Shown: positions 24,066 through 52,259, counted from the stretch's first letter. The stretch: 64,000 nt of DNA from an uncultured Acidimicrobiaceae bacterium (GCA_963726855.1 CAVSEB010000014.1:2668-66667); one strand, 5' to 3'. A program made the numbers and translations. The notes: generated by a model not told the origin, from the sequence alone.

Positions 24066-25307
24066 TCAGCCGAGCCCGAACCAGCCAAGGACGGTCAGGA
24101 ACACGTACACGCTGGCCACGGCGGCCACGGACATGATGGCCAGGCCACCGACCCAGCGTGACACGGGTCCGTTGCTGGCCGAACCGAGCAGGGAACGGCG
24201 GTTGGCAAGGACGAGGATCAAAATCAACGTGATCGGGGTGATCACGCCCTCGAGGACCTGGGTGTTGAGGATCAGCGTGATCAGGTTGCCGGGCACCAGG
24301 ACCACCGCCGCCCCCACGAGAATCTGGAAGGTGAAGATGCCCAGGAAGACCGGTGCCTGGCGGAAGCTCGACGACACCGACCGCTCCACCCCGATCGCCT
24401 CCGCCACGGCGTAGGAGGTCGAAAGGGGCACAACGGCGGCGGCCAGAGCGGAGGCCCCCAGCAAGCCCAGCCCGAACAGGGTCTCGGCGGCGGCGCCGGC
24501 GACTGGTTTCAACGCCTGGGCCGCGGTCGATGCCGAGGTCAGCGGGCCCGATCCTCCGATGGTGGCCCCGGTGGCCACGATGATCGACATGGCGACGAAG
24601 GACGCCATGAGGGCTCCGGCGATGGCGTCGAAACGCTGGTAGCGGTATTCCGCGGGCTTGACCCCCTTGTCGACCACGGCGCCCGCTTCGTAGAGCTGGA
24701 TATACGGGGTGATGGTGGTGCCGATAAGGGCAACCGAGAGCAGGAGGAACGATTTGCTGGCGACGAAGTGGGGCCACACTGTGTTGACCGCCACCTGGTG
24801 CCAATTGGGATGGGCGAGGACGGCGGCGATCGGATAGGCGATGAAGACGAGGGTCATGAGCAAGAACACCCGTTCGGCGTAGCGGTAGGACCCGAAGAGG
24901 ACGAGCGACCAGATCGCCACGGCAGCGATCGGTACCGAGAGGTAGCGCGACACGCCGAAGAGCTCGAACGACGTGGCGATGCCACCGAACTCAGTGACCA
25001 TGAGGCCGAGATTGGCGATCGCGAACGCGGTGATGGCGAACGCGGTGAGCCGCAGGGGTAACTCTTCGCGTATGAGCGCCGCCAATCCCTTGCCGGTGAA
25101 CACGGAGAGCCGGGCCACCATCTCCTGCACGATGACGTAGGCCACAGTGATGAGCACCATCAGGAACAGGGTGCGGTAGACGAACTGTGCCCCGGCGGAC
25201 GCGTACGTCACGACACCGCCGGCGTCGTTGCCGGCTGCCGCGGCAATGAGTCCGGGTCCAGCTGCGGCCAGATAGATCAGCCACCGCCGGGAGGCGGGCG
25301 GCTTCAC
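24066..25307 (-). CDS. Nramp-related transporter with non-canonical metal site (NRMT-like)
   Basis: Nramp fold. The TM1 motif reads GNDAGG instead of DPGN. TM6 reads GTTITPYIQLY instead of GA.vMPHNLyLHS. The GTG start overlaps the stop of the upstream CBS protein (GTGA). Confidence 0.85.
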   Translation of the reverse strand: MKPPASRRWLIYLAAAGPGLIAAAAGNDAGGVVTYASAGAQFVYRTLFLMVLITVAYVIVQEMVARLSVFTGKGLAALIREELPLRLTAFAITAFAIANLGLMVTEFGGIATSFELFGVSRYLSVPIAAVAIWSLVLFGSYRYAERVFLLMTLVFIAYPIAAVLAHPNWHQVAVNTVWPHFVASKSFLLLSVALIGTTITPYIQLYEAGAVVDKGVKPAEYRYQRFDAIAGALMASFVAMSIIVATGATIGGSGPLTSASTAAQALKPVAGAAAETLFGLGLLGASALAAAVVPLSTSYAVAEAIGVERSVSSSFRQAPVFLGIFTFQILVGAAVVLVPGNLITLILNTQVLEGVITPITLILILVLANRRSLLGSASNGPVSRWVGGLAIMSVAAVASVYVFLTVLGWFGLG

Positions 25308-26707
25308 GAAAGCAGGCGCGGGAAGTGGAATCTGCCCTTGGTCGGGACCAGGACGTCCAGCACGTCGTCCACCATGATCCGTCCGATCGGACTCCCGTCA
25401 TCGTCCACGACGACGAGACTGTGGCGCCGGGCCTCGATCAAGCGGTGTGCGACCTCTTTGGTGGGCGTCTTGGCATGGACGGGCACCTCTTCCTCCAGGA
25501 GCAGCGCCGACATCCTGGTGTCCTTGTCCTCCCGCAGTGCGAGCAGGATGTCGAGCACGGCCACGTCGCCGATGAGGCGGCCGTCGCTGTCGACCACCGC
25601 GACGGCGTCGAGGTCGACTCCGTGGTTTCTGGCCTCGGAGAGCCGGTCGACGACCTTCTTCACCTTGTCGCCGGAATGCGCCGTGACCAGGGCCGTTGTC
25701 ATGATTCCGCCGGCCTCGTCCTCCTCGTACCCGAGCAGCTCGCGCAGGGCCAGAGCCGTCGACTGGGGGATGTGGCGCAGCACCTCGGCCCGGACGGCCA
25801 GAGGCAGGTGGCGGAGCGCGTCAGCGGCCTCGTCGGGTTCCATGGCGGCAACCAATCGGGCCGCGTCGGCCGGATCTGTCTCGCGCAACAGCTGCTCGAG
25901 ATCTTCGGGCTCCATCTCTTCGAGCGCGTCGGCCGCCTCGTCCGGATCGAGCGCGGACAGCAGCTCGCGGCGCTCGTCGCGACGCAGGTCCTCGAGGAGG
26001 TCGGCCAGCTCGGCCGGGCGCAGGCGTTGCAGCCCTTCGTTCGTTGTCTTGAGGCGCACCTGGGTCGCGGCTTGGGCCTCGCCGGTCGACTCGGCGAAGG
26101 TCTGGATGGCCGCCCAGTCGATCACACGGTCAGGCGTGGGACGCGGCCGCCAGCGACGCGGCCCCAGACGACGCAGGAGCGTGGCATTCGACACGTCGGC
26201 ACCGACCAGGCGGATGCGACCAATGGCCTCGGCCAGGTACAAGTCGGCGGCACGAATGACTTGGACCCCCTCGACGTCGACGAGCTGGTGGTCCAGCACA
26301 TCCTTGGCCAGGAGCACTTCGTTGGGCCGGCGCACCACATCGCGCAGGTCGAGCCGACTCGAGCGCAACAACACTTCGGCGTGGCCGATCCGGTCGATCG
26401 ACGAGGCCGGCACGAAGGCATCGCGGCGCCCCACCTTGATGACCAGGCCGCTGACGGGCGGGTAGACCTGCCCATCCGCCCACCGAGCCACGACGTCTTC
26501 GAGGCGGCCGATCTCTTGGCCGCGCTGGTTGCGCACGGGGCGACCGAGAAGGCCGGCCAGCGACACGATGGAATCGAACACGCCCTCGGAGGCGAGAATG
26601 CGCCGCGTACGCCGGCGCCGCCGGCTCGGACCGCGGTCTGGACCACGGGGCCGACCATTGAAAATGCCAGAGCGAGCCGGTGCGCTCGTGGGTGGTGGCG
26701 TTGCCAT
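25304..26707 (-). CDS. soluble PRC-barrel + MgtE N-domain + CBS-pair protein (no transmembrane domain)
   Basis: AGGAGGGAGCTCC precedes the ATG at 26707. PRC-barrel-like VRNQRGQEIGRLEDVV...VIKVGRRDAFVPASSI. MgtE_N helical repeats (LADLLEDL..PDEAADALEEMEPEDLEQLL..). GYEEDEAGGIMTT followed by two CBS motifs. The protein ends where the MgtE membrane pore would begin. Confidence 0.85.
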   Translation of the reverse strand: MATPPPTSAPARSGIFNGRPRGPDRGPSRRRRRTRRILASEGVFDSIVSLAGLLGRPVRNQRGQEIGRLEDVVARWADGQVYPPVSGLVIKVGRRDAFVPASSIDRIGHAEVLLRSSRLDLRDVVRRPNEVLLAKDVLDHQLVDVEGVQVIRAADLYLAEAIGRIRLVGADVSNATLLRRLGPRRWRPRPTPDRVIDWAAIQTFAESTGEAQAATQVRLKTTNEGLQRLRPAELADLLEDLRRDERRELLSALDPDEAADALEEMEPEDLEQLLRETDPADAARLVAAMEPDEAADALRHLPLAVRAEVLRHIPQSTALALRELLGYEEDEAGGIMTTALVTAHSGDKVKKVVDRLSEARNHGVDLDAVAVVDSDGRLIGDVAVLDILLALREDKDTRMSALLLEEEVPVHAKTPTKEVAHRLIEARRHSLVVVDDDGSPIGRIMVDDVLDVLVPTKGRFHFPRLLS

Positions 26708-26960
26708 GGAGCTCCCTCCTGCATGACGCCCACTGTGGGACAGAGTCGGTTTGGACGACCAGCGGGCGTACCGCCCGCCGGACTTCAATTGCCGGCGCCT
26801 GCGTCCGTGCGAGTGCCCGTGGCCGGGCTCACCGCGAGCTCGTGGCGAGAATCAGCCGATGGACGGAGCGGAGCACGCGCCAACTGAGCTACTGGGGGGT
26901 TCGCCTCTCGACACGGCCGCACCTCCTTCTCATCGACCCTTGGACAGGGATGGTGCATCC
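26708..26960 (-). promoter_or_regulatory. long structured 5' leader of the CBS/NRMT-like operon
   Basis: Hairpins on the minus strand: GCCCG-GCCA-CGGGC, CGCCGG-10 nt-CCGGCG, GGGCG-GTA-CGCCC, and a long-range CGCGTGCTC...GAGCTCGCG pairing. There is a perfect AAGGAGGTG SD with no long ORF behind it. Confidence 0.45.
26852..26914 (-). CDS. candidate 20-codon leader peptide (uORF)
   Basis: AAGGAGG sits 7 nt upstream of the GTG. Encodes VSRGEPPSSSVGACSAPSIG then a stop. The function is inferred only. Confidence 0.3.
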   Translation of the reverse strand: MSRGEPPSSSVGACSAPSIG

Positions 26961-33733: not shown

Positions 33734-34601
33734 GTGGCGGTGCTCAAGAAGTACGGGGACGATCGGGGAGGATCGCTCGCCGCGCTCGTCACCTTCTACG
33801 GATTCCTTGCCGTATTTCCGTTACTCCTTCTCTTCGTCACCGTCGTCGGTCTGGTGTTGCGCCACAACCCCCAGGCTGAGCAACACATCATCCACTCAGC
33901 ACTCGGCGAATTTCCCGTGATCGGTGACAAGCTGGCGTCGAGCATCTCCGCGCTGCACAAACCCTCTCCGCTGGCTTTCGTGGTCAGCTTCGTGGGTCTC
34001 TTGTGGGGATCTCTCGGCGTGACCAGCCACCTCCAGACCGCGAGCGCGATCATGTGGGGCGTGCCGCGCCGCAAGGAAGCCGGACTTGTCCCGCGGCGTC
34101 CTGCGCGGCCTGCTCCTGCTGGGCACCATCGCCATGGCCGTCGTGGGGAGTGCCATCCTTGCCGGCATCTCGACCATCGGCGGGGTGGAACATAACGCGG
34201 TGGCCTACTGGGCCTACACGCTCGTCGGTGCGGCCGCGGTGAACTTTGCCGCCTATCTCCTGGCTTTGCACATCCTGGCTCCGCCCGGGACACGCTGGCA
34301 CCAGCTCGTGCCGGGCGCGTCGATCGGGGCGCTCGGTTGGACGATTCTCGAAGCGGCGGGCGGCCTCTTGGTGAGCCACGCTCTTCGGCACGCCACTGAG
34401 CTCTACGGTCTCTTCGCCACGGTGCTCGGCCTGGTGTTCTGGCTCTCCCTGGGCTCGCAGCTCTTCATCTACGCCGGCGAGACGAATGTCGTCCTGGCCA
34501 AGCGTCTGTGGCCGCGCCACCTCGACGAACAAGCCACGGCCGCGGCCGCCACGGCCACCGCGTCGGACGAGACTCAGGCCGTCTCGCCGCCGAACTCCTG
34601 A
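33734..34601 (+). CDS. YihY/BrkB-family membrane protein, frame-broken and with unclear start
   Basis: KKYGDDRGGSLAALVTFYGFLAVFPLLLL... is in ORF 33734..34195. It continues as LSRGVLRGLLLLGTIAMAVV... in ORF 34086..34601. Break near 34076-34085. The open frame extends upstream to about 33662 without an ATG, GTG or TTG. Confidence 0.75.
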
Positions 34602-34921
34602 TACGCAGCAAGTGCCCTCGGACCCCAGACGGTGCCGGGTCCCCCGTTCATGCTGATGGCCACGCCAATCATTTCGACTACCTCTTGGCGCGTCGCGCCC
34701 CGACGCACGGCGCCACGGGCGTGCGCGACGACGCAGCCGTCGCATTCACGGGTGATGGAGATAGCCAGAGCAATGAGCTCCTTGACCTTGGCCGAGAGCG
34801 CGCCTTCCTTCATGGCTGCGTCGTGGAGCGCCGCGTAGCCCGCGGTCACGTCCGGAATGGCCTCCTGCAGCTGGCGATACGGCTCCCGCAGCTCGTCCTG
34901 CACCTGGTGAAATTGTTCCAT
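34574..34921 (-). CDS. carboxymuconolactone decarboxylase (AhpD-like) family protein
   Basis: KELIALAISITRECDGCVVAHARGA contains the CxxC motif typical of the CMD/AhpD fold. Start taken at MEQFHQV. Confidence 0.8.
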   Translation of the reverse strand: MEQFHQVQDELREPYRQLQEAIPDVTAGYAALHDAAMKEGALSAKVKELIALAISITRECDGCVVAHARGAVRRGATRQEVVEMIGVAISMNGGPGTVWGPRALAAYQEFGGETA

Positions 34922-34946
34922 GGCGCATGCTGGCACGCGGCCAGCC

Positions 34947-35537
34947 TCAGTCCGGATCGCCGCTCTGTGGTCCTCGGTTGCGCACCTCTTCTACCTTGGC
35001 CATGGCTCCCCGGAGCTCGTCGATCCACTCGGATTCGTGCTGCCCGACCAGGCGCACGCACCAGGCCAGGGCCTGGCTCCGGCTGCCGGCCACGCCGGCA
35101 TCGATCAGGGTGTCGAGGACACGCCGATCGCGCATCCCGAGTCGGGTCATGGCGGGAACGCCGGCTGTCGTGAAGTGGACCCGCGAACCTCCGCACTGGG
35201 CACCCCACGAGACCGTCCGCCTGAACGCCGGCTGAGCCTCGTCGGCGATGCGCACCCTGGCGCCTCTGGTCTCCTCACGGAATCCGCTGATCCGGGCCTG
35301 CTCGGCCACCCTGACCTCGTCGTCTCCCGCCGCTTCGGCCAATTGGGGGGAGGTCAGGGTGCCGACGATAAGGATTTCGTCGCCGTCGATCTCGATTGTC
35401 GGGCTGCCCTCGAACCACCCCTCGGGTACGCGGCCGCTGAACCACGCGCTAATCAGTCGCTCCTGTTCGGGACCCGACGGAACCTGCTCTGCCGAGCGCC
35501 GGCGTCCCCGCTGGGGCCCTCTTCCTGTATCAGTCAT
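34947..35537 (-). CDS. conserved hypothetical protein with possible ribbon-helix-helix-like C-terminus
   Basis: ORF 34947..35537. The C-terminal MTRLGMRDRRVLDTLIDAGVAGSRSQALAWCVRLV resembles an RHH/CopG-type module; this is an inference. The ATG directly abuts an AT-rich repeat motif, so the transcript may be leaderless. Confidence 0.6.
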   Translation of the reverse strand: MTDTGRGPQRGRRRSAEQVPSGPEQERLISAWFSGRVPEGWFEGSPTIEIDGDEILIVGTLTSPQLAEAAGDDEVRVAEQARISGFREETRGARVRIADEAQPAFRRTVSWGAQCGGSRVHFTTAGVPAMTRLGMRDRRVLDTLIDAGVAGSRSQALAWCVRLVGQHESEWIDELRGAMAKVEEVRNRGPQSGDPD

Positions 35538-35594: not shown

Positions 35595-36056
35595 TCACGA
35601 GAGGAAGAGCTTGTAACCGAGGTGGGAGGGCACGAATCCGAGCCGCTCGTAGAAGCGGTGGGCGTCCTCCCGGGCACGATTGGAGGTCAGCTGGACGCGG
35701 TAGCAGCCGAGGGCCCGGGCTCGCTCGATCGCATCAGCCACCAGGGTCGAACCAATGCCGGCGCCCCGATGGTCGGGATGGACGTGCACGGACTCGATCT
35801 CGGCGCAGAGACCGCCGCGCCGGTGCAGGTGACGGAACACGATGAGTTGGCAGACCCCCACAACCTCATCGCCCAGCTGGGCCACGAGCACAGCACCGAG
35901 GCCCTCCTCGATCTCGTGCAGGGCCGACCGGTAGAGAGCGATGTCGCCGCCCTCTGGAGAGGTCTCGCCTGGAACAGACCCTCTCGCCAGGAGCTCGATG
36001 ACCAGGGGCAAGTCGCCGTCGGCAGCCCTGCGAATTAGTAGGTGTGATGGTGGCAT
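35595..36056 (-). CDS. GNAT-family N-acetyltransferase
   Basis: ...HVHPDHRGAGIGSTLV...RFYERLGF is an acetyl-CoA binding signature. Confidence 0.88.
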   Translation of the reverse strand: MPPSHLLIRRAADGDLPLVIELLARGSVPGETSPEGGDIALYRSALHEIEEGLGAVLVAQLGDEVVGVCQLIVFRHLHRRGGLCAEIESVHVHPDHRGAGIGSTLVADAIERARALGCYRVQLTSNRAREDAHRFYERLGFVPSHLGYKLFLS

Positions 36057-36101: not shown

Positions 36102-36317
36102 TCAGCGACCGCCGGGACGCACGCGGAGTGTGATGGCCCGTCGAGGGCAATCACGCGCAGCGCGGCGGGCGAGCACGGCCAGCTCGGTCGGGATCGGCTT
36201 GCCGTCGACCACGGGGTACCCCCATTCGTCGAGCGTGATGGCTTCGGGCAGCAGCTCGGCGCAGTAGCCGTAGGCGTCGCACGCCACGGGATCGATCACG
36301 ATCCGCACGCCGCTCAT
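36102..36317 (-). CDS. small ferredoxin
   Basis: MSGVRIVIDPVACDAYGYCAELLPE...ARDCPRRAI. ATGA overlap with the upstream NuoF-like gene. Confidence 0.75.
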   Translation of the reverse strand: MSGVRIVIDPVACDAYGYCAELLPEAITLDEWGYPVVDGKPIPTELAVLARRAARDCPRRAITLRVRPGGR

Positions 36318-37597
36318 ACTGTGCTGCTGACGACGGGGAACCGCATCCGGCTCGGTGCATTCCAATAGGGACAGGGCACGCCACTGGCGTGGGCCCGGGC
36401 ATCTGCTTCAAACACGGCCAACGCGCTGCGGACCAGACTCACCACACCGTCAGGATGACGGCAGGCGCCCCGGCCGTTCACGACGCTGAGGCGCCGGGCC
36501 AGCCGGTTCAACAGATCGGGTTCGGCCACGCCGCGAGCGAGACGGGTCATGTCGTCTGCGATGGCAGGCAGGCCGTACACACAGGGACCACACTGGCCCG
36601 CACTCTGGCCTGCCATGTAGTGCGCCACCCGTGCCGTCTCGGTCAGGCCGCAGGCCTCATGGCTGAGCACGATCAGGATGCCGACGCCGGCGGCTGCACC
36701 GACAGCACGGAGCGGCAGGGAGGCGTACGGCGTCGTGAAATGATCAGGTCCGACCCAGTTACCGCCGTAGCCGCCCACAAGGAGTGCACGCGGGGGGCCT
36801 AGGGGGTTCGCCCGAGCCGCGATGTCAAGAAGAGAAGTCCCTCTGACGACCTCGACCACACCCGGGTGTGTCACGGCGCCCGAAATGGTGACGAGCGAGG
36901 TGCCGGGGTCGTCGTTCGGTCCATGACTGCGAAAGGCCTCGGCCCCGAAGCGTCCGATCATGCACACATGGGCCAGGGTCTCCGCGTTGTGGATCAGCGC
37001 CGCCCGGCGCCCGACGCGCAAGGGCGTGCCTTTGTTTGGTCGGAACGTGGGGAGGGACCTGCCGCCCTCCACCCACTGCACCAACGCCGACTCCTCGCCG
37101 GCGACGAAGCGGTCGGGCGGGCGCACCATTTGCTCGGCCACGGGAGCCCAGCCTGCGGCTGCCCGCTCGGCCAAGGCGTGCGCCGTGGCGGCGGCCACCT
37201 GCTCGCGCCCGGCGGGCACGCAGACGGTGACCTGCGCAGCGCCAGTGGCGGCGGCCAGCAGCTGAGCACCGTCGAGCACCACGTGAGGGGATCGGATCAG
37301 CAGAAGTTTGTCCTTGTCGCTGGCCGGCTCCCCCTCCATGGCGTTCACCAGGATGGTGCCGCCTGAGCCTGCGGCACCGGTGACGGCCACCTTGATGGCG
37401 GCCGGGAAGCCAGCCCCGCCGCGGCCGGTCAGACCAGATATTTCGAGTGAACGGACAAAGGCCTGCCGCCACTCCCGTCCGGGCGACGTTGGTACCGGGA
37501 GTGGCCCGAGGACGGCCGCGTGCCCGGCGAGATCCGCCGGATGACCGAGGATGCGGTAACGGCTGGCGGCGGCGACGGTCTGGTCGACGCTAACCAC
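36314..37597 (-). CDS. NuoF-like protein (SLBB plus NADH-dehydrogenase-F 4Fe-4S region)
   Basis: GLTGRGGAGFPAAIK..., NAMEGEPASDKDKLLL, CGPCVYGLPAI...GRGACRHPDG. Confidence 0.8.
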   Translation of the reverse strand: MVSVDQTVAAASRYRILGHPADLAGHAAVLGPLPVPTSPGREWRQAFVRSLEISGLTGRGGAGFPAAIKVAVTGAAGSGGTILVNAMEGEPASDKDKLLLIRSPHVVLDGAQLLAAATGAAQVTVCVPAGREQVAAATAHALAERAAAGWAPVAEQMVRPPDRFVAGEESALVQWVEGGRSLPTFRPNKGTPLRVGRRAALIHNAETLAHVCMIGRFGAEAFRSHGPNDDPGTSLVTISGAVTHPGVVEVVRGTSLLDIAARANPLGPPRALLVGGYGGNWVGPDHFTTPYASLPLRAVGAAAGVGILIVLSHEACGLTETARVAHYMAGQSAGQCGPCVYGLPAIADDMTRLARGVAEPDLLNRLARRLSVVNGRGACRHPDGVVSLVRSALAVFEADARAHASGVPCPYWNAPSRMRFPVVSSTV

Positions 37598-38213
37598 GGC
37601 GAACTCGAGGACCGATGCGCCGGCCGATCGCTAGGTGCTTCGGAGGGATGCCGCCGACTGTCGCGTGCGCTGTACGTGCGGCCGTTTGACGTGTGACGAC
37701 AACCGCCCGCCAGGCCAGGGCAGCCGACACGGTGGCCACGCAGACCACCCCGAGCACGATCACCCATTGTTCGCCTGCGTCGGTGCCCATGCCGAACGTA
37801 TGGGCGAGGGCGATCGGCCAGGAGAGGTAGGCCAACCAGTGCAGGGCGCGCCAGGTTTCCGGTCGCAGGCGCGACCGGAGCAGGCTCGTCACGAACACCG
37901 CTGCCATCAGGTCCAGCGAGACGGCGCCAACACCGACCCAGAACCTGTCGTAGCCGGACGTGAAGGGCACCACAATTGCCGCCCACCCGATGTCGACATA
38001 CGTGTCGAGCACGCTGGTCAGTACGTGGAGCGCGACGAATACCACCGCGATCATGGACAGGCGACGGTGCATTTCCTGTTGGGCGAATCCGGGCCACTGG
38101 CGCGCCCGGGCCCGAGTCGTGGTTGTGATGCCCAGCACCATGGTGACGGTGAGGAGAACGAGCGCCATCAACCCGGTAGCCCGGGTCGCGTACCAGAACG
38201 CGGTGGAGCTCAT
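37590..38213 (-). CDS. ferric-reductase/MsrQ-like transmembrane (di-heme b type) protein
   Basis: Starts at the ATG at 38213 (MSSTAFWYATRATGLMALVLL...). Has HRRLSMIAVVFVALHVL and LHWLAYLSWPIALAHTF His pairs in TM helices. ATGA overlap with ApbE. Confidence 0.75.
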   Translation of the reverse strand: MSSTAFWYATRATGLMALVLLTVTMVLGITTTTRARARQWPGFAQQEMHRRLSMIAVVFVALHVLTSVLDTYVDIGWAAIVVPFTSGYDRFWVGVGAVSLDLMAAVFVTSLLRSRLRPETWRALHWLAYLSWPIALAHTFGMGTDAGEQWVIVLGVVCVATVSAALAWRAVVVTRQTAARTAHATVGGIPPKHLAIGRRIGPRVRRG

Positions 38214-39157
38214 GCTGATTCCTCGAGCGGCCAGCCGTTCACGGTGAAGATCCTCCCGTCGACCCGGACAAGACGGACAGACTGTTCGAAGCGGCGGAGT
38301 TGGTCGAGCGCATCGGCCCCCCAGACGAGCGAGGCGGTGGTGACAAGGTTGGCCTCCACGCACGAGGTCGCGGTGGCAGACACGAGCGACCAGTAGCGCT
38401 CGGCGCAGTCACCGGTACGGGGATCGACGATGTGGTGCATCTCGCGTTCGCCCGACCTCCACGTCCGGGCGCCGACGGCAGAGCTGGCCAGCCCGCCGTG
38501 CCTGATGGCGACCACTTGATCTACCTCCTCGGCCTGGGCCGACGATTCATGAGCGATGCCAATCGCCCAGCCGTCACGGGGCGATGGACCGGCAACGGCA
38601 ACGTCACCACCAAGGCTGACGAGCACCCCACCGTTGACGGCGTGCGCGATCCGCGCCGCAGCGCGGTCGGCCGCCAGCGCTTTTGCGCTCGAACCGAGGT
38701 CGAGACGCACGCCCTTCGGGATGCGCACCGAGCATGTCCGGGGATTGAGCTGCACGTGCAAGTAACCGGGCACTAGACCGAGGGCGTGTGGGGATACAGG
38801 AGGGCGAGTCTGCACATGCGCGAGATCGGCGTCATACCCAAGAGCGCAAATGGCGTTGCCGACCGTGGGATCGACCACGCCACCAGTGCGGGCGGCGACG
38901 CGGCAAGCCACTTCGAGCGCCTCGAACAGCAATCCCGAAACCCGCACGGTCCGACCCGCCTCGGCGTGGACCATGGCCAGCTCGGAGTCGTCTCGGAACC
39001 GGCTGCAGGCCAGATCGATCTCCTTGAGCGTTCGGTCGAGCACGCACTCAGCCAGGCTCGCTTGATCCGGTTCCTGCACGACCACGGTGGCCGTGGTTCC
39101 GATGGCACGGAAGGATCGAGCCGTGAGACCTGTGTCGGACGCGGCCGTCAGCGTCAT
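38210..39157 (-). CDS. apbE: ApbE-family FAD:protein FMN transferase
   Basis: ...FRAIGT...VDPTVGN...DLGSSAKALAADRAA...LVSLGGDV...GLASS... is the ApbE pattern. 315 aa. Confidence 0.85.
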   Translation of the reverse strand: MTLTAASDTGLTARSFRAIGTTATVVVQEPDQASLAECVLDRTLKEIDLACSRFRDDSELAMVHAEAGRTVRVSGLLFEALEVACRVAARTGGVVDPTVGNAICALGYDADLAHVQTRPPVSPHALGLVPGYLHVQLNPRTCSVRIPKGVRLDLGSSAKALAADRAAARIAHAVNGGVLVSLGGDVAVAGPSPRDGWAIGIAHESSAQAEEVDQVVAIRHGGLASSAVGARTWRSGEREMHHIVDPRTGDCAERYWSLVSATATSCVEANLVTTASLVWGADALDQLRRFEQSVRLVRVDGRIFTVNGWPLEESA

Positions 39158-39485
39158 CGTGAGGTACCCCCGGACGTCACCGTCGGTGTGGACGAGGTGG
39201 ACGACGGCGCCGAGGTTGTCGAAGTGGTGGTGTTCGAGGTCCCAAGGTCCGACGACTTCGTGGTCGACGAACCACCGGTCGTGGTTCCGTCCGACTGGGA
39301 ATTTCCCCGCTCGAGGACGTGTCGGAGGATGTGGCGCTCGAGCCGGGGTGCTCTCGGGCCACGGCGACAGCGATCACGGCGGTTGCACCGGTGACCGCAA
39401 GCAGAGCACCTCGCGTCGCGTGGCGCACCCGGGACTGGGCCCTGGCCCTCCTCTCGGATCCCGTCATTTCAGATTGGTGTGGCAT
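39154..39485 (-). CDS. membrane-anchored Ser/Thr-rich protein, frame-broken as sequenced
   Basis: MTGSERRARAQSRVRHATRGALLAVTGATAVIAVAVA anchor, then SSATSSDTSSSG. After a break at the ggggaaa run (about 39295-39310) the frame reading NSQSDGTTTGGSSTT...TVTSGGTSR ends in an ATGA overlap with apbE. Confidence 0.5.
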
Positions 39486-39743
39486 CGATCAACAACCTCT
39501 GCTCGCGGGACGTCTCCATCCCAACATCCCCGATTCGACCCCGGCTCGGGATGCGCTGTGTGTCTCCTGTGACATCCCGCCGGCGCACTGCAGGCACGAA
39601 GAGCCCCGTGCTGCCCTGCTCGTCCGCCTCAGTGGATGCAGTGAAGCTGGGTCGATCGGTATGGAGAATTTCCGTCGGTATGACAATATTCGGGTTCCCT
39701 GCGGCCGAGGCCCCGAGGAGTGCCGCGAACACGGAAGGCCGCA

Positions 39744-50937: not shown

Positions 50938-51009
50938 CGCCCCCGGAAGGATTCGAACCTTCGCACACGGTTTAGGAAACCGATGCTCTATCCCCTGAGC
51001 TACGGGGGC
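50938..51009 (-). tRNA. tRNA-Arg (anticodon CCT)
   Basis: Hand-folded 72-nt cloverleaf. Acceptor GCCCCCG/CGGGGGC. D arm GCTC-AGGGGATA-GAGC. Anticodon loop TTCCTAA. T arm GAAGG-TTCGAAT-CCTTC. Discriminator G. Confidence 0.9.
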
Positions 51010-51099: not shown

Positions 51100-52259
51100 A
51101 TGACACGCAGACAAGACTACGGGACGGGCACACTGCGACTGGTGGCGCCGAGGAAGTGGCAACTTCGCATTTACGCAGGTCGGACGGCCGAGGGCAAGGT
51201 TCGACACGTGAACCGCACCTTCACCGGCACAGAGACGCAGGCACGCCGGGAGCTGGCACGTCTGAGCGCCGAGCTTCTGAGGGGCCAGATCAGCATCTCG
51301 GGTCGCGAACCGTTCGGCGATCTGCTTGATCGCTGGTTGGAGCAGATCGAGCCGACTCGCCGACCCAAGACCATCGCCGAATACAGGGCGAAGATTGAGC
51401 ATCGCATCCGGCCGGCGCTCGGGTCGACCCGAATCGACCGCATCAAACCTGCCCAGCTCGACGCCCAGTACCGGCAGTGGCTGGACGAGGGCCTCTCCCC
51501 CACAACCGTGCATCACCACCACGCCATCATCTCGACGGCGCTGAGTCAGGCGGAACGGTGGCAGTTGATCACGGCCAACCCCGCCCGGCTCGCATCTCCG
51601 CCACGGATGCGCCAAGCACAACTGATCATCCCCGAACCGTCACAGCTCCTCGACCTGATCGCAGGCGCCGAGGAGCGCGAGGATCACTCACTCGCCACCG
51701 CAATGGCTCTCGCAGCACTGACGGGCGCACGGCGTGGCGAGCTGTGCGCCCTGCGGTGGTCGGACGTCGACCTGACCGCAGGCACGGTGCGGATCGCCCG
51801 CTCGCTGACTGTTGTCGGAGCTGAGGTCTACATCGGCCCGACCAAGACGCATGCTGTTCGGGTGGTGGCGCTCGGAGACGCTGGCGTTGCCACGCTCATG
51901 CGTCGGCGCTTGCGGATGGAAGAGTTCGCGGCGAGGTCGGTGTTCCTCTTGACTCCGACCCCTTGGTCCTGAGCGACGTGCCCCGATCAGATCATCATTT
52001 GATGCCGGATCGGGTGTCGCAGCGGTTTACCAAACTGTGCCGGACGCTCGGCGTGCACTTCCGCTTTCACGACCTGCGACACTTCGCCGCCACTCAGCTC
52101 ATCGGGGCCGGGGTGGACGTGAGAACCGTGGCAAACCGCCTCGGACATGCTGACACCTCGACTACTACGAACATCTACGCTCACCCGCTCTCCGAGCGGG
52201 ACGAACACGCTGCCAACGTGCTTGGCGCCCTGCTACCAGCTGCGACGCCTGACGAATAA
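51100..52259 (+). CDS. tyrosine-type site-specific integrase, frame-broken as sequenced
   Basis: N-terminal SAM-like/core-binding part, ...ALTGARRGELCALRWSDVDL... (catalytic Arg). The C-terminus HDLRHFAATQLIGAGVDVRTVANRLGHADTSTTTNIYAH (HxxR...H...Y) is in ORF 51963..52259. Break near 51930-51938. Lies 90 bp from tRNA-Arg. Confidence 0.88.

Follow-up and report, generated by a model that had tools for sequence, protein, structure and literature searches.

A candidate MsrQ-like electron-transfer operon in an uncultured Acidimicrobiaceae bacterium, with its small first-gene product as possible flavin acceptor

Layout and conservation of the operon

The window analysed here, a stretch of 64,000 nucleotides from an uncultured Acidimicrobiaceae bacterium, carries five overlapping genes on its minus strand. 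In reading order, they encode a small protein (39154..39485; 110 aa once corrected for a G missing in the run 39305-39308), which is the candidate flavinylated acceptor, an ApbE-family FAD:protein FMN transferase (38210..39157; 315 aa; Pfam PF02424), an MsrQ/NOX-like membrane protein with a ferric reductase domain (FRD; 37590..38213; 207 aa; PF01794, Ferric_reduct), a NuoF-like flavo-iron-sulfur protein (36314..37597; 427 aa; PF01512, PF10589 and a weak SLBB match) and a small single-cluster ferredoxin (36102..36317; 71 aa; PF13459, Fer4_15). ATGA overlaps join the small gene to apbE (39154-39157), apbE to the FRD gene (38210-38213) and the NuoF-like gene to the ferredoxin gene (36314-36317), and the TAG of the FRD gene and the GTG of the NuoF-like gene share 8 nt, GTGGTTAG, at 37590-37597. 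The five-gene overlapping operon described in the first-pass annotation is real, as coordinates and Pfam matches bear out all four junctions and four of the five genes; the fifth, the small gene, has however a broken ORF in the sequence of the window, and a frame check revealed that two reading frames had been merged there unremarked. The NuoF-like and FRD genes have identical counterparts among metatranscriptome contigs. A GNAT acetyltransferase gene recognised by Pfam (35595..36056, minus strand), 45 nt 3' of the ferredoxin gene, may be co-transcribed with the operon although it lies outside the core: only about half of the related loci carry it beside the operon, and the actinomycete plasmid clusters lack it.

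In the sequence as given, the ATG at 39485 opens an ORF of 102 aa with its stop at 39177, whose Arg/Pro-rich tail is non-coding as judged by its GC3 of 0.24-0.31, and the Ser/Thr-rich sequence that reaches the ATGA overlap sits in a different frame from this ATG. Contigs from two independent short-read metagenome runs, otherwise identical to the window across the small-gene region, have one extra base behind 39304 (G5, not G4), which restores a single ORF of 110 aa from 39485 to 39154, ending in the overlap with apbE. Furthermore, a BrkB family gene at 34095 shows a similar one-base indel, the second in the window, relative to a short-read contig, and the frameshifted small-gene copies among related loci (6 of 69) all stem from long-read MAGs. 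Thus, the one-base deletion is most likely an assembly error. Although it is present in the window as given, we regard it as very improbable that the frameshift is genuine in the organism, leaving a pseudogene and a chain without acceptor, since the short-read runs match the region exactly but for the extra G, the second indel is likewise missing from a short-read contig, the shifted copies are confined to long-read MAGs, and the downstream frame retains both a high GC3 and an intact motif.

The gene set is syntenic elsewhere: among the 80 Acidimicrobiales loci collected, the order is kept in about 73 of the 78 that are informative, and it recurs in five actinomycete plasmids, from Cnuibacter, Rhodococcus, Mycobacterium, Arthrobacter and Gordonia.

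Upstream of the operon, the leader of the small ORF is conserved in close relatives. An extended -10-like element TGnTnnnAT (TGTTGGGAT, 39518..39526, minus strand), whose columns are conserved over 63 aligned upstream regions, is followed by the Shine-Dalgarno sequence AGAGG (39496-39500, minus strand); since a scan of this region for consensus sigma-70 promoters gave no match, we infer the element from its conservation. Further upstream lies the direct repeat CACAG-N6-CACAG (39556..39571, minus strand), beginning 86 nt 5' of the small-ORF ATG and without a second exact match in the 64-kb window. At 82-96 nt 5' of the small ORF, the repeat is exact in 45 and has one mismatch in 11 of 60 Acidimicrobiales loci; it is also exact in the Rhodococcus and Arthrobacter plasmids, and triple repeats precede adjacent two-component genes in L069, L074, L075 and L078. 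The repeat is a candidate operator, at which a response regulator of the OmpR family probably controls the operon.

The electron-transfer proteins and ApbE

The FRD protein is predicted to be a di-heme b conduit. Four histidines, H49, H63, H125 and H138, are invariant in 38 FRD sequences, Actinomycetes included, and their pairs, H49/H63 and H125/H138, are spaced 13 and 12 residues, as can be read directly from the sequence. Hydropathy and two AF2 models point to five long helices and one short helix within the 72-89 loop, where the family has six; the models being of low confidence (pLDDT only 58), this topology rests on hydropathy and charge. According to Pfam, the protein has no FAD/NAD domain of its own. 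Some database sources name its homologues "methionine sulfoxide reductase heme-binding subunit" or YedZ.

The NuoF-like protein, predicted to be the NAD(P)H-oxidising entry point, combines Complex1_51K and NADH_4Fe-4S domains (Pfam), matches Nqo1, NuoF and HydB in the PDB at about 1e-33, retains the GRGGxxFP, EGEP and GEES motifs, and has four cysteines (C316, C336, C339 and C379) that are invariant in 81 sequences. A true NuoF was rejected: the score of 159.8 bits compares with an equivalog cut-off of 558.65, the first motif Cys is replaced by Ala (S-A-G-Q-C-G-P-C) with the invariant C316 lying ~20 residues earlier, and no NuoE or NuoG partner is encoded nearby. In the ferredoxin, three cysteines and a C-P motif (C13, C19, C57 and P58) are invariant in 84 sequences. 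A Rieske dioxygenase cluster of R. pyridinivorans uses the pair of NuoF-like protein and ferredoxin as well, and therefore the two behave as a modular NADH-to-ferredoxin donor.

ApbE matches its domain profile over positions 2-256 of 266 with 148.5 bits against a cut-off of 25.6, and its PDB homologues include TM1553 and T. pallidum Ftp. Among 72 ApbE sequences, H242, I243, D245 and P246 of the H-H-I-x-D-P motif, which holds the catalytic His, are invariant, as are the active-site residues S226 and T274, the latter aligned with Ftp T288. In an alignment to Ftp only, the likewise invariant N270 of this clade occupies the place of Ftp Asp284, with a Glu or Asp two residues earlier; taking Asp284 to be a metal-binding residue, the clade appears to have exchanged this Asp for Asn, a point against the reading of the locus favoured below. 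A lipoprotein or secretion signal at the N-terminus is typical for ApbE, but not universal. Here, contrary to the initial description of the enzyme as extracytoplasmic, neither the window protein nor any relative, distant Acidimicrobiales ones included, has a signal peptide or hydrophobic N-terminal segment: within the first 60 residues the maximal KD(15) is 0.87 in the window protein and 0.76-0.96 across it and four plasmid homologues, and the sequence 5' of apbE codes, in another frame, for the small protein. ApbE is predicted to be cytoplasmic, but the candidate motif is predicted to lie outside the cytoplasm. Cytosolic ApbEs are known (PMC12052999).

The expected acceptor domain, FMN_bind (PF04205), was reported missing at the outset, and this held for the operon and for the ~28 window proteins scanned with Pfam, as well as for the annotated actinomycete plasmid clusters. 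Moreover, no alternative candidate substrate was found in any of ~85 clusters examined.

The small protein and its C-terminal motif

An intact small ORF of 96-152 aa is present in 63 of 69 related Acidimicrobiales loci, with its stop no more than ~10 nt from the apbE start in 56 of 65. It is usually overlooked by gene callers and hence mostly unannotated. All 63 proteins share a layout of a conserved 50-aa N-terminal signal or anchor, which aligns without gaps over 61 loci, a Ser/Thr/Gly-rich linker that varies freely in sequence and length, and a conserved end. The hydrophobic segment of the window protein, GALLAVTGATAVIAVAVA (residues 26-43; 39357..39410, minus strand; Kyte-Doolittle 2.18), preceded by six Lys+Arg and followed by a conserved REHPG, is predicted to be either a signal-anchor or the h-region of a cleavable signal peptide. 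The label "anchor" given to the protein earlier is uncertain, as in 59 of 61 sequences the residues that follow the hydrophobic stretch are compatible with cleavage by signal peptidase (V/A/I at -3, A/S at -1).

Although this protein had been said to lack an obvious flavinylation motif, it ends in V-T-S-G-G-T-S-R (39157..39180, minus strand), where the predicted FMN-bearing Thr is the codon ACC at 39163-39165. Its relatives end in P-x-V-T-S-G-[G/A]-[T/S]-S-R-COOH, close to the ApbE motif [S/T]GA[S/T]. Across the 63 relatives the S-G core is invariant; the next residue is G in 55, A in 7 and P in 1, and the predicted acceptor position, two after S-G, is T in 45 and S in 18, so that seven relatives have an exact S-G-A-[T/S]. 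In 61 of 63, one to three residues follow the motif. The [S/T]-G core and an acceptor Ser/Thr two residues on, as the ApbE substrate motif requires, are therefore present (T-S-G-G-T in the window), whereas relative to the canonical D-x-x-[S/T]-G-A-[S/T] there is no Asp, the Ala position is mostly Gly, and a Pro is conserved at -4. According to a review (PMC12052999), ApbE needs only a linear motif of ~7 residues, best placed at a protein terminus, and mutagenesis found the Asp dispensable and ~50% flavinylation left after G-to-A or A-to-V exchanges.

The entropy of the motif codons is 0.60, 0.44 and 1.53 bits at positions 1, 2 and 3, that is, the motif is conserved at the amino-acid and not at the nucleotide level. 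The small ORF is real, and selection acts at the amino-acid level on its first 50 residues and on the final 8-10. Among 77 database representatives matched by the small-protein profile (A6), 46 have the motif within their last 12 residues, and the remaining 31 include visibly frameshifted or truncated sequences. Outside the main clade the motif weakens to S-G-Q-S or [S/T]-x-x-S; in each of the five actinomycete plasmids, apbE is immediately preceded by a small ORF that carries a signal or anchor and ends in [S/T]-x-x-S-COOH.

Proposed electron path, alternatives and known systems

We lean towards reading the locus as an MsrQ-like electron-transfer operon of the NuoF-like subtype that uses its own first-gene product as flavin acceptor. 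The domains uphold the parts list drawn up in the first-pass annotation, namely a cytoplasmic NuoF-like protein and ferredoxin, a di-heme FRD conduit and ApbE, and the transmembrane chain to a flavinylated acceptor that it proposed matches a published MsrQ-like class (PMC8238504). Judged by sequence, the operon probably serves to move electrons of NAD(P)H through the membrane. NAD(P)H would reduce the FMN of the NuoF-like protein, whose 4Fe-4S cluster would pass electrons to the ferredoxin and on to the inner and then the outer heme of the FRD protein. By the same kind of evidence we infer flavinylation of the small protein: ApbE would attach FMN to the Thr or Ser of its C-terminal S-G-[G/A]-[T/S], the N-terminal signal or anchor would direct its export, and the FMN, on a flexible linker of ~60-100 residues, could then take electrons from the outer heme and pass them on to cell-envelope acceptors, perhaps metal ions. 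Given the missing export signal of ApbE, the simplest reading is that the unfolded tail would receive its FMN in the cytoplasm, ahead of Sec export or while it proceeds. If this is true, the tail, at the end of a disordered, Ser/Thr-rich protein without any folded domain, would be a natural flavin tag on a leash.

Several features speak against such an acceptor. It needs an unproven step, either modification before export or another export route for ApbE; a bare tethered FMN would have no obvious docking domain for the outer heme of the FRD protein; and the putative motif has no canonical Asp and usually Gly for Ala. It is conceivable, if unlikely, that the small protein is no ApbE substrate but a subunit of the FRD complex with a structural or assembly role, the ApbE target being encoded elsewhere; for instance, it could supply the transmembrane helix that a five-helix FRD protein lacks, its C-terminus serving docking, processing or glycosylation. 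The departure from the canonical motif, reduced to [S/T]-x-x-S in Actinomycetes, would fit this, as would an N-terminal anchor far more conserved than a generic anchor requires, the apparent five long helices of the FRD protein, whose heme histidines sit where NOX helices 3 and 5 carry theirs, the disagreeing compartments of ApbE and motif, and four loci in which the small gene directly precedes the FRD gene and apbE is missing. However, the apbE-less L057 and L064 come from the same MAGs as the apbE-containing L058 and L045, the small-gene stop overlaps the apbE start in most loci, the best-conserved C-terminal part is exactly the S-G-[G/A]-[T/S] core, with the exact form in seven relatives, and the ~85 clusters offer no other candidate substrate.

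We consider it rather improbable that the FMN tail stays in the cytoplasm, shuttling electrons from the NuoF-like protein or the ferredoxin to the inner heme in place of the FAD of NOX and STEAP or of the free flavin that Fre gives to MsrQ, with the FRD protein reducing an external substrate directly. FRD-family proteins do receive electrons from a flavin at the cytoplasmic face, the FRD protein here has no FAD/NAD domain, ApbE lacks an export signal throughout the clade, and cytosolic ApbEs are known; yet 3-10 Lys+Arg before and 0-1 after the hydrophobic segment predict an N-in, C-out orientation, the residues at -3/-1 are compatible with a signal-peptidase site, linkers rich in S/T/P such as TTTTSPPTTTTT typically occur outside the cytoplasm, and the NuoF-like FMN site is already there, with the ferredoxin sufficing as carrier. 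Scarcely credible, finally, is an MsrPQ-type or similar repair system in which electrons go from the FRD protein to a periplasmic reductase, with ApbE and the small protein as bystanders: the Msr heme-binding-subunit and YedZ names of homologues would suggest it, but these reflect automatic domain-level transfer, no MsrP/YedY-type molybdoenzyme is encoded in or near any cluster, and the apbE, NuoF-like and ferredoxin genes are invariably linked instead.

Several known systems resemble the proposed chain in part. In Listeria extracellular electron transfer (Ndh2, EetA/B, PplA, FmnB), a Gram-positive chain likewise starts at cytoplasmic NADH and leads to an acceptor that is tethered at the surface, flavinylated by ApbE and able to reduce iron and other external substrates; PplA, however, is a lipoprotein in which two FMN_bind domains are folded, FmnB acts outside the cytoplasm, and the membrane is crossed via the quinone pool and EetA/B, without FRD hemes, a NuoF-like protein or ferredoxin. 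With NOX, STEAP and E. coli MsrQ (with Fre), the FRD protein shares the helical bundle, the predicted two b hemes, His pairs 13 and 12 residues apart on two helices and the presumed outward flow of electrons from cytoplasmic NAD(P)H; it differs in the lack of a fused FAD/NAD domain, its presumed donor being a separate NuoF-like protein and ferredoxin, in its just five predicted long helices, and in the proposed acceptor, a protein-bound FMN in place of O2, a metal ion or MsrP. FMN_red proteins have been shown to be flavinylated on a C-terminal extension that is unstructured (Huang et al. 2024, mSystems, PMC11334425), and for the synthetic Flavin-tag seven residues are enough, with a terminal position best (Tong et al. 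2021, as cited in PMC12052999). Both resemble the proposed case in that ApbE acts on a short linear motif in an unstructured C-terminal tail, but the tail of FMN_red lies folded back on a flavin-binding domain, and the Flavin-tag was engineered as a label. The same review (PMC12052999) describes a cytoplasmic ApbE of Klebsiella pneumoniae that, like ours, has no signal peptide; it flavinylates, in the cytoplasm, a soluble fumarate reductase with an FMN_bind domain, whereas the candidate substrate here bears an export signal.

The closest published relatives are the MsrQ-like flavinylation-associated systems, mainly actinobacterial, 31 clusters of which include a PF10589 NuoF-like protein (Méheust et al. 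2021, eLife, PMC8238504). As in that class, apbE adjoins a PF01794 di-heme gene, which lies within five genes of apbE and in fact overlaps its stop, and the NuoF-like protein is the presumed NAD(P)H entry. Unlike the class, which typically has an FMN_bind-domain gene, our operon has neither this domain nor an ApbE with a signal peptide, and its candidate substrate, a small protein without domains, is mostly passed over by gene callers. The survey took only clusters in which a target gene had a predicted signal peptide; here, ApbE has none and the sole export signal of the cluster is on the small ORF, which the gene sets of that study would mostly lack. The operon class is already published, and the candidate acceptor of the present operon appears to be undescribed. 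VIT1 transporters are often found near members of the class (PMC8238504); they also occur near the plasmid homologues of the present operon and in locus L048.

The gene string and its first gene

Between 36102 and 39485, the minus strand carries a tightly packed string of genes whose junctions, read directly from the window sequence, overlap as the first-pass annotation had claimed: ATGA joins the small first ORF to apbE (39154-39157), apbE to the gene of a ferric-reductase-domain (FRD) membrane protein (38210-38213) and the NuoF-like gene to the ferredoxin gene (36314-36317), and GTGGTTAG joins the FRD gene to the NuoF-like gene (37590-37597). Pfam matches support the four products that follow the small ORF (ApbE, 148.5 bits; Ferric_reduct; Complex1_51K and NADH_4Fe-4S; Fer4_15), and the operon belongs to a class already described in the literature, the NuoF-like subtype of MsrQ-like flavinylation-associated systems (Méheust 2021, PMC8238504). 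With the NuoF-like protein as query, we retrieved 80 loci of 52-86% identity, all from Acidimicrobiales/Acidimicrobiaceae soil MAGs; two are cut by a contig end, and ~73 of the 78 informative ones keep the order small ORF, apbE, FRD, NuoF-like, ferredoxin. Plasmids from Cnuibacter, Rhodococcus qingshengii, Mycobacterium sp. JS623, Arthrobacter and Gordonia also have the cluster, and the gene-neighbourhood survey bears out the five genes as a syntenic set. Contigs from one soil metatranscriptome, identical to parts of the NuoF-like (37291-37456) and FRD (37893-38095) genes, weakly suggest transcription in soil, DNA carry-over being possible.

The first gene had been described as encoding a short membrane-anchored Ser/Thr-rich protein, a description that drew on two frames, and the literal window sequence does not encode such a protein. 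Read from the ATG at 39485, the frame closes after 102 aa with a stop at 39177, and its Arg/Pro-rich tail has a GC3 of 0.24-0.31; the Ser/Thr-rich reading that runs into the ATGA overlap lies in a different frame. This frameshift is most likely an assembly error. Two independent public short-read runs, from separate studies of a soil and an urban metagenome, yielded contigs that agree with the region in full save for one extra base behind 39304; in both, the coding strand reads G5 where the window has G4 (39305-39308). Restoring the G yields a single 110-aa ORF, MPHQ...GALLAVTGATAVIAVAVAREHPG...(S/T-rich)...TPTVTSGGTSR*. Among 69 related loci, the small ORF is intact in 63 (96-152 aa) and frameshifted in six, all of them long-read MAGs and none short-read. 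Some database proteins of 415-455 aa appear as fusions of the anchor with ApbE; we judged these to be frameshift artefacts, as their linkers are His/Asp-rich out-of-frame text and the two-gene arrangement, with the small-ORF stop no more than ~10 nt from the apbE start, is kept in 56/65 loci. Elsewhere in the window, a BrkB/YihY-family gene (33734-34601, plus strand) is likewise split over two frames and differs from a short-read contig by a single-base indel at 34095, so that the window holds at least two gene-breaking homopolymer-type assembly errors. For comparative genomics this is a caution: the key gene is of low complexity, prone to homopolymer errors and largely missing from gene calls, which in a close relative leave a 600-bp gap where the small ORF should sit.

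A conserved C-terminal motif in the small protein

The small protein consists of three parts, namely an N-terminal segment of 50 residues, a linker and a C-terminus. The N-terminal segment aligns without gaps (..TPExRxxAxxRLRxLTRGAVLAATGATVAIGVVVA[RHK][ED]HPG), and the linker, with 30% Ser, 29% Thr and 13% Gly, is hypervariable in both length and sequence. The C-terminus follows the consensus (A/P)-P-x-x-x-x-x-x-P-x-V-T-S-G-G-T-S-R-COOH. Across 63 sequences its S-G is invariant, the next position being G in 55, A in seven and P in one, followed by T (45) or S (18), and only 1-3 residues come after the motif in 61 of them. Over the motif, entropy is 0.60, 0.44 and 1.53 bits at the first, second and third codon positions, with each of the four codons for Gly and for Thr in use; both results argue for selection on the peptide and not on the DNA. 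In one deeper Acidimicrobiales subclade the terminus is T-T-V-S-G-Q-S-COOH, and in some cases another copy lies internally; proteins with two copies of the motif (loci L014, L020, L076 and L080; for instance PAVVSGGSS...PTVTSGGSA, or APTTVSGQS twice) may be doubly flavinylated. The plasmid homologues end in S-A-G-S, S-H-G-S, T-K-G-S, T-R-A-S or T-A-A-S, their common form [S/T]-x-x-S-COOH having the spacing of the canonical ApbE motif.

No Pfam or NCBIfam model matches this family, whose members are named “hypothetical protein” in databases, and only eight clusters of it were found in a set of 5.8 billion proteins. We built a profile from the 50 N-terminal residues of the window protein together with eight database proteins, of which two were full-length and had the C-terminal motif; searched against 1.84 billion representatives, it retrieved 81 clusters (50% identity), 77 of them new. 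[S/T]-G-[G/A]-[S/T] lies within the last 12 residues in 46 of the 77 new representatives; among the remaining 31 are sequences visibly frameshifted, truncated or fused to ApbE.

To our knowledge, the sites at which ApbE is known to attach flavin covalently are all on folded domains (FMN_bind, NqrB/RnfD, DUF2271, DUF3570, Flavodoxin_4 and FMN_red). The residue that receives FMN from ApbE is the last one of D-x-x-[S/T]-G-A-[S/T]; seven residues suffice, placement at a terminus is the most favourable, and Ser is accepted. Furthermore, the Asp is replaceable with little effect, and G-to-A and A-to-V exchanges keep about half of the flavinylation (review PMC12052999). In FMN_red proteins, an unstructured extension at the C-terminus is a demonstrated site of flavinylation (PMC11334425). 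Given this tolerance of the motif and the precedent of the FMN_red extension, the T-S-G-G-T-S-R terminus of the window protein, in which the first-pass annotation had seen no obvious flavinylation motif, is a plausible flavinylation site and the sole candidate in the cluster. The NuoF-like protein was considered as a substrate and rejected, since its S-G-G-T near residue 77 is unconserved and its I-S-G-A-V is a general NuoF motif, and so was the FRD protein, whose loop P-F-T-S-x-Y is no flavinylation motif. The window ApbE keeps H242, S226 and T274; at the position of T. pallidum Ftp Asp284, which we take to be a metal ligand, it has an invariant Asn (N270, 38348-38350, minus strand), with Glu/Asp two residues earlier. 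We lean, by a modest degree, towards ApbE flavinylating the first gene product of its own operon. This is a specific, testable answer to the question of what ApbE serves here, and our literature search found no paper on a domain-less ApbE substrate of this kind.

Proposed electron route and compartment of the flavin

From the assigned domains and conserved residues, we infer a direction of electron flow and an acceptor role for the flavinylated tail. In the best-supported model, NAD(P)H would reduce the FMN of the NuoF-like protein, whose Fe-S cluster would pass electrons to the ferredoxin and on to the inner and then the outer heme of the FRD protein; from there they would reach FMN on the small-protein C-terminus and finally acceptors in the envelope. 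The NuoF-like protein (36314-37597, minus strand) retains the FMN/NADH motifs GRGGxxFP, EGEP and GEES, and scores far under the NuoF equivalog threshold. Its invariant cysteines are C316, C336, C339 and C379; the canonical C-x-x-C-x-x-C 4Fe-4S motif has Ala for its first Cys, which C316, 20 residues upstream, may replace. A Rhodococcus homologue with the same Ala/C316 pattern is dioxygenase-linked: on a Rhodococcus pyridinivorans plasmid (L087, 4827-6307), the NuoF-like and ferredoxin pair lies inside a Rieske aromatic-ring dioxygenase cluster and takes the place of a conventional reductase, which points to a modular role for the pair as NAD(P)H-to-ferredoxin donor. In the ferredoxin itself, three Cys are invariant and a C-P motif is present. 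Four His of the FRD protein (H49, H63, H125 and H138) do not vary across 38 sequences, Actinomycetes included; their spacings of 13 and 12 residues are also those of NOX helices 3 and 5. Five long helices, with an outside N-terminus and a basic C-tail on the inner face, are suggested by hydropathy, by the charges of the loops and by two AF2 models of low confidence (protein alone; shallow alignment; pLDDT ~58).

The chief difficulty of this model is a mismatch of compartments, with a predicted cytoplasmic ApbE and a motif predicted to be exported. ApbE lacks a hydrophobic segment at its N-terminus in every relative that we inspected, and this could agree with a rival reading in which the FMN tail serves on the cytoplasmic side; the small protein, for its part, has several Arg ahead of its hydrophobic stretch, and its -3/-1 positions are compatible with a signal-peptidase site in 59 of 61 sequences. 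We prefer modification of the unfolded tail before or during Sec export, which would explain both a substrate without a folded domain and a motif at the extreme C-terminus. Tat export appears unconvincing by eye, since the R-R of distant members is followed by T/S and not by hydrophobic residues, and the main clade reads R-L-R-x-L-T-R. According to another rival, the small protein is purely structural and the ApbE target is unlinked. In four paralogous clusters (L053, L057, L063 and L064) apbE is missing, and the FRD, NuoF-like and ferredoxin genes come straight after the small ORF; two of these clusters, L057 and L064, share a MAG with an apbE-carrying locus (L058 and L045, respectively).

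Taking export-coupled modification further, we tentatively entertain, as a rather doubtful possibility, that the small protein is a natural “flavin tag on a leash”, loaded by a cytoplasmic, signal-less ApbE, passed through Sec and acting outside as an electron shuttle. It would be ribosomally made and intrinsically disordered, its only functional parts being the N-terminal export/recognition segment and the C-terminal FMN, and precisely the want of a folded domain would permit passage through Sec. Captive, or released after signal cleavage, it would shuttle electrons from the outer heme of the NOX-like conduit to cell-wall acceptors. If true, the small protein would represent an ApbE substrate of a new class, one that spares the cell from exporting FAD, and nature would already employ the engineers' Flavin-tag principle on a disordered, domain-less substrate. 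A protein-tethered flavin would then be added to the routes by which Gram-positive soil bacteria are known to transfer electrons out of the cell, and would account for the published MsrQ-like subtype without visible acceptor, a subtype found both in soil Acidimicrobiales, which are abundant, and on Rhodococcus, Mycobacterium, Arthrobacter, Gordonia and Cnuibacter plasmids. It also raises a pointed question of cell biology: how is an exported target served by a cytoplasmic flavin transferase?

At residues 44-50 of the small protein (39336-39356, minus strand), a signal-peptidase cut after V-x-A would give the mature N-terminus R-E-H-P-G. His is third in 50/61 relatives, the form of an amino-terminal Cu/Ni-binding (ATCUN) motif, which the actinomycete homologues (Y-S-D-T) do not have.

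Upstream elements and gene neighbours

An exact CACAG-N6-CACAG direct repeat, the sole exact match in the window, lies at 39556-39571 (minus strand) and starts 86 nt upstream of the small-ORF ATG. At 82-96 nt upstream of the small ORF, the repeat is exact in 45 of 60 Acidimicrobiales loci and has one mismatch in 11; it is exact in Rhodococcus and Arthrobacter plasmids (L083, 3112-3127; L086, 3129-3144) and kept in three of the four clusters without apbE. Triple CACAG repeats stand upstream of adjacent two-component genes in L069, L074, L075 and L078, and an OmpR/PhoB-family regulator gene adjoins the cluster in 20 loci and three plasmids. The 11-bp period of the repeat suggests a regulator of the OmpR/PhoB type, and the repeat is probably the operator of such a regulator. 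Downstream of it follow a conserved TGnTnnnAT (39518-39526, minus strand) and AGAGG ~10 nt before the ATG on the same strand. An upstream in-frame ORF of 29 codons was set aside in favour of a DNA-level element, its ATG being unconserved (ATT in L001). No IdeR iron box matched within three mismatches. An Rfam gathering scan of the whole window returned two tRNAs only and no riboswitch upstream, FMN-type or other; a promoter and terminator scan gave no sigma-70 promoter-like sites, and terminator-like sites at chance level.

The plasmid clusters often adjoin an OmpR-type two-component system, a VIT-family transporter, DUF2231 and other metal-homeostasis genes. VIT and DUF2231 genes recur in L082, L083 and L084 (plasmids) and in L048; CDF, ArsR/SmtB and P-type ATPase genes adjoin the Cnuibacter cluster, and a multicopper oxidase gene that of Arthrobacter. 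Given the VIT, CDF, P-type ATPase and multicopper oxidase genes beside the plasmid clusters, the function of the operon is probably linked to metals, and for VIT-linked clusters iron reduction has been proposed by Méheust et al. (PMC8238504). None of the VIT, DUF2231, CDF, P-type ATPase or multicopper oxidase neighbours occurs in the window itself. All-against-all ORF clustering across the 80 loci, swamped by spurious high-GC ORFs, gave only ORF196, CMD and GNAT as frequent neighbours.

Close downstream of the operon, the window has a cytochrome P450 gene (32358-33665, plus strand) and a CMD/AhpD-like gene (34574-34936, minus strand); an ORF at 34947-35537 is highly conserved (76-97% identity across loci) and without a family match. 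An Nramp (Mn/Fe) transporter gene lies beside an MgtE_N/CBS-domain gene at 24066-26788 (minus strand), ~10 kb from the operon. A tRNA gene (50938-51009, minus strand) followed immediately by a phage-type integrase gene (51100-51972, plus strand) may mark the edge of an integrated element. On a Streptomyces sp. NBC_00637 plasmid (L090, 3003-3650), a secreted 215-aa protein encoded upstream of a signal-less apbE has Met/Gly-rich repeats (MGMDGMNMSGG...) and the end ...SGNGS, and may be a different low-complexity partner of ApbE.
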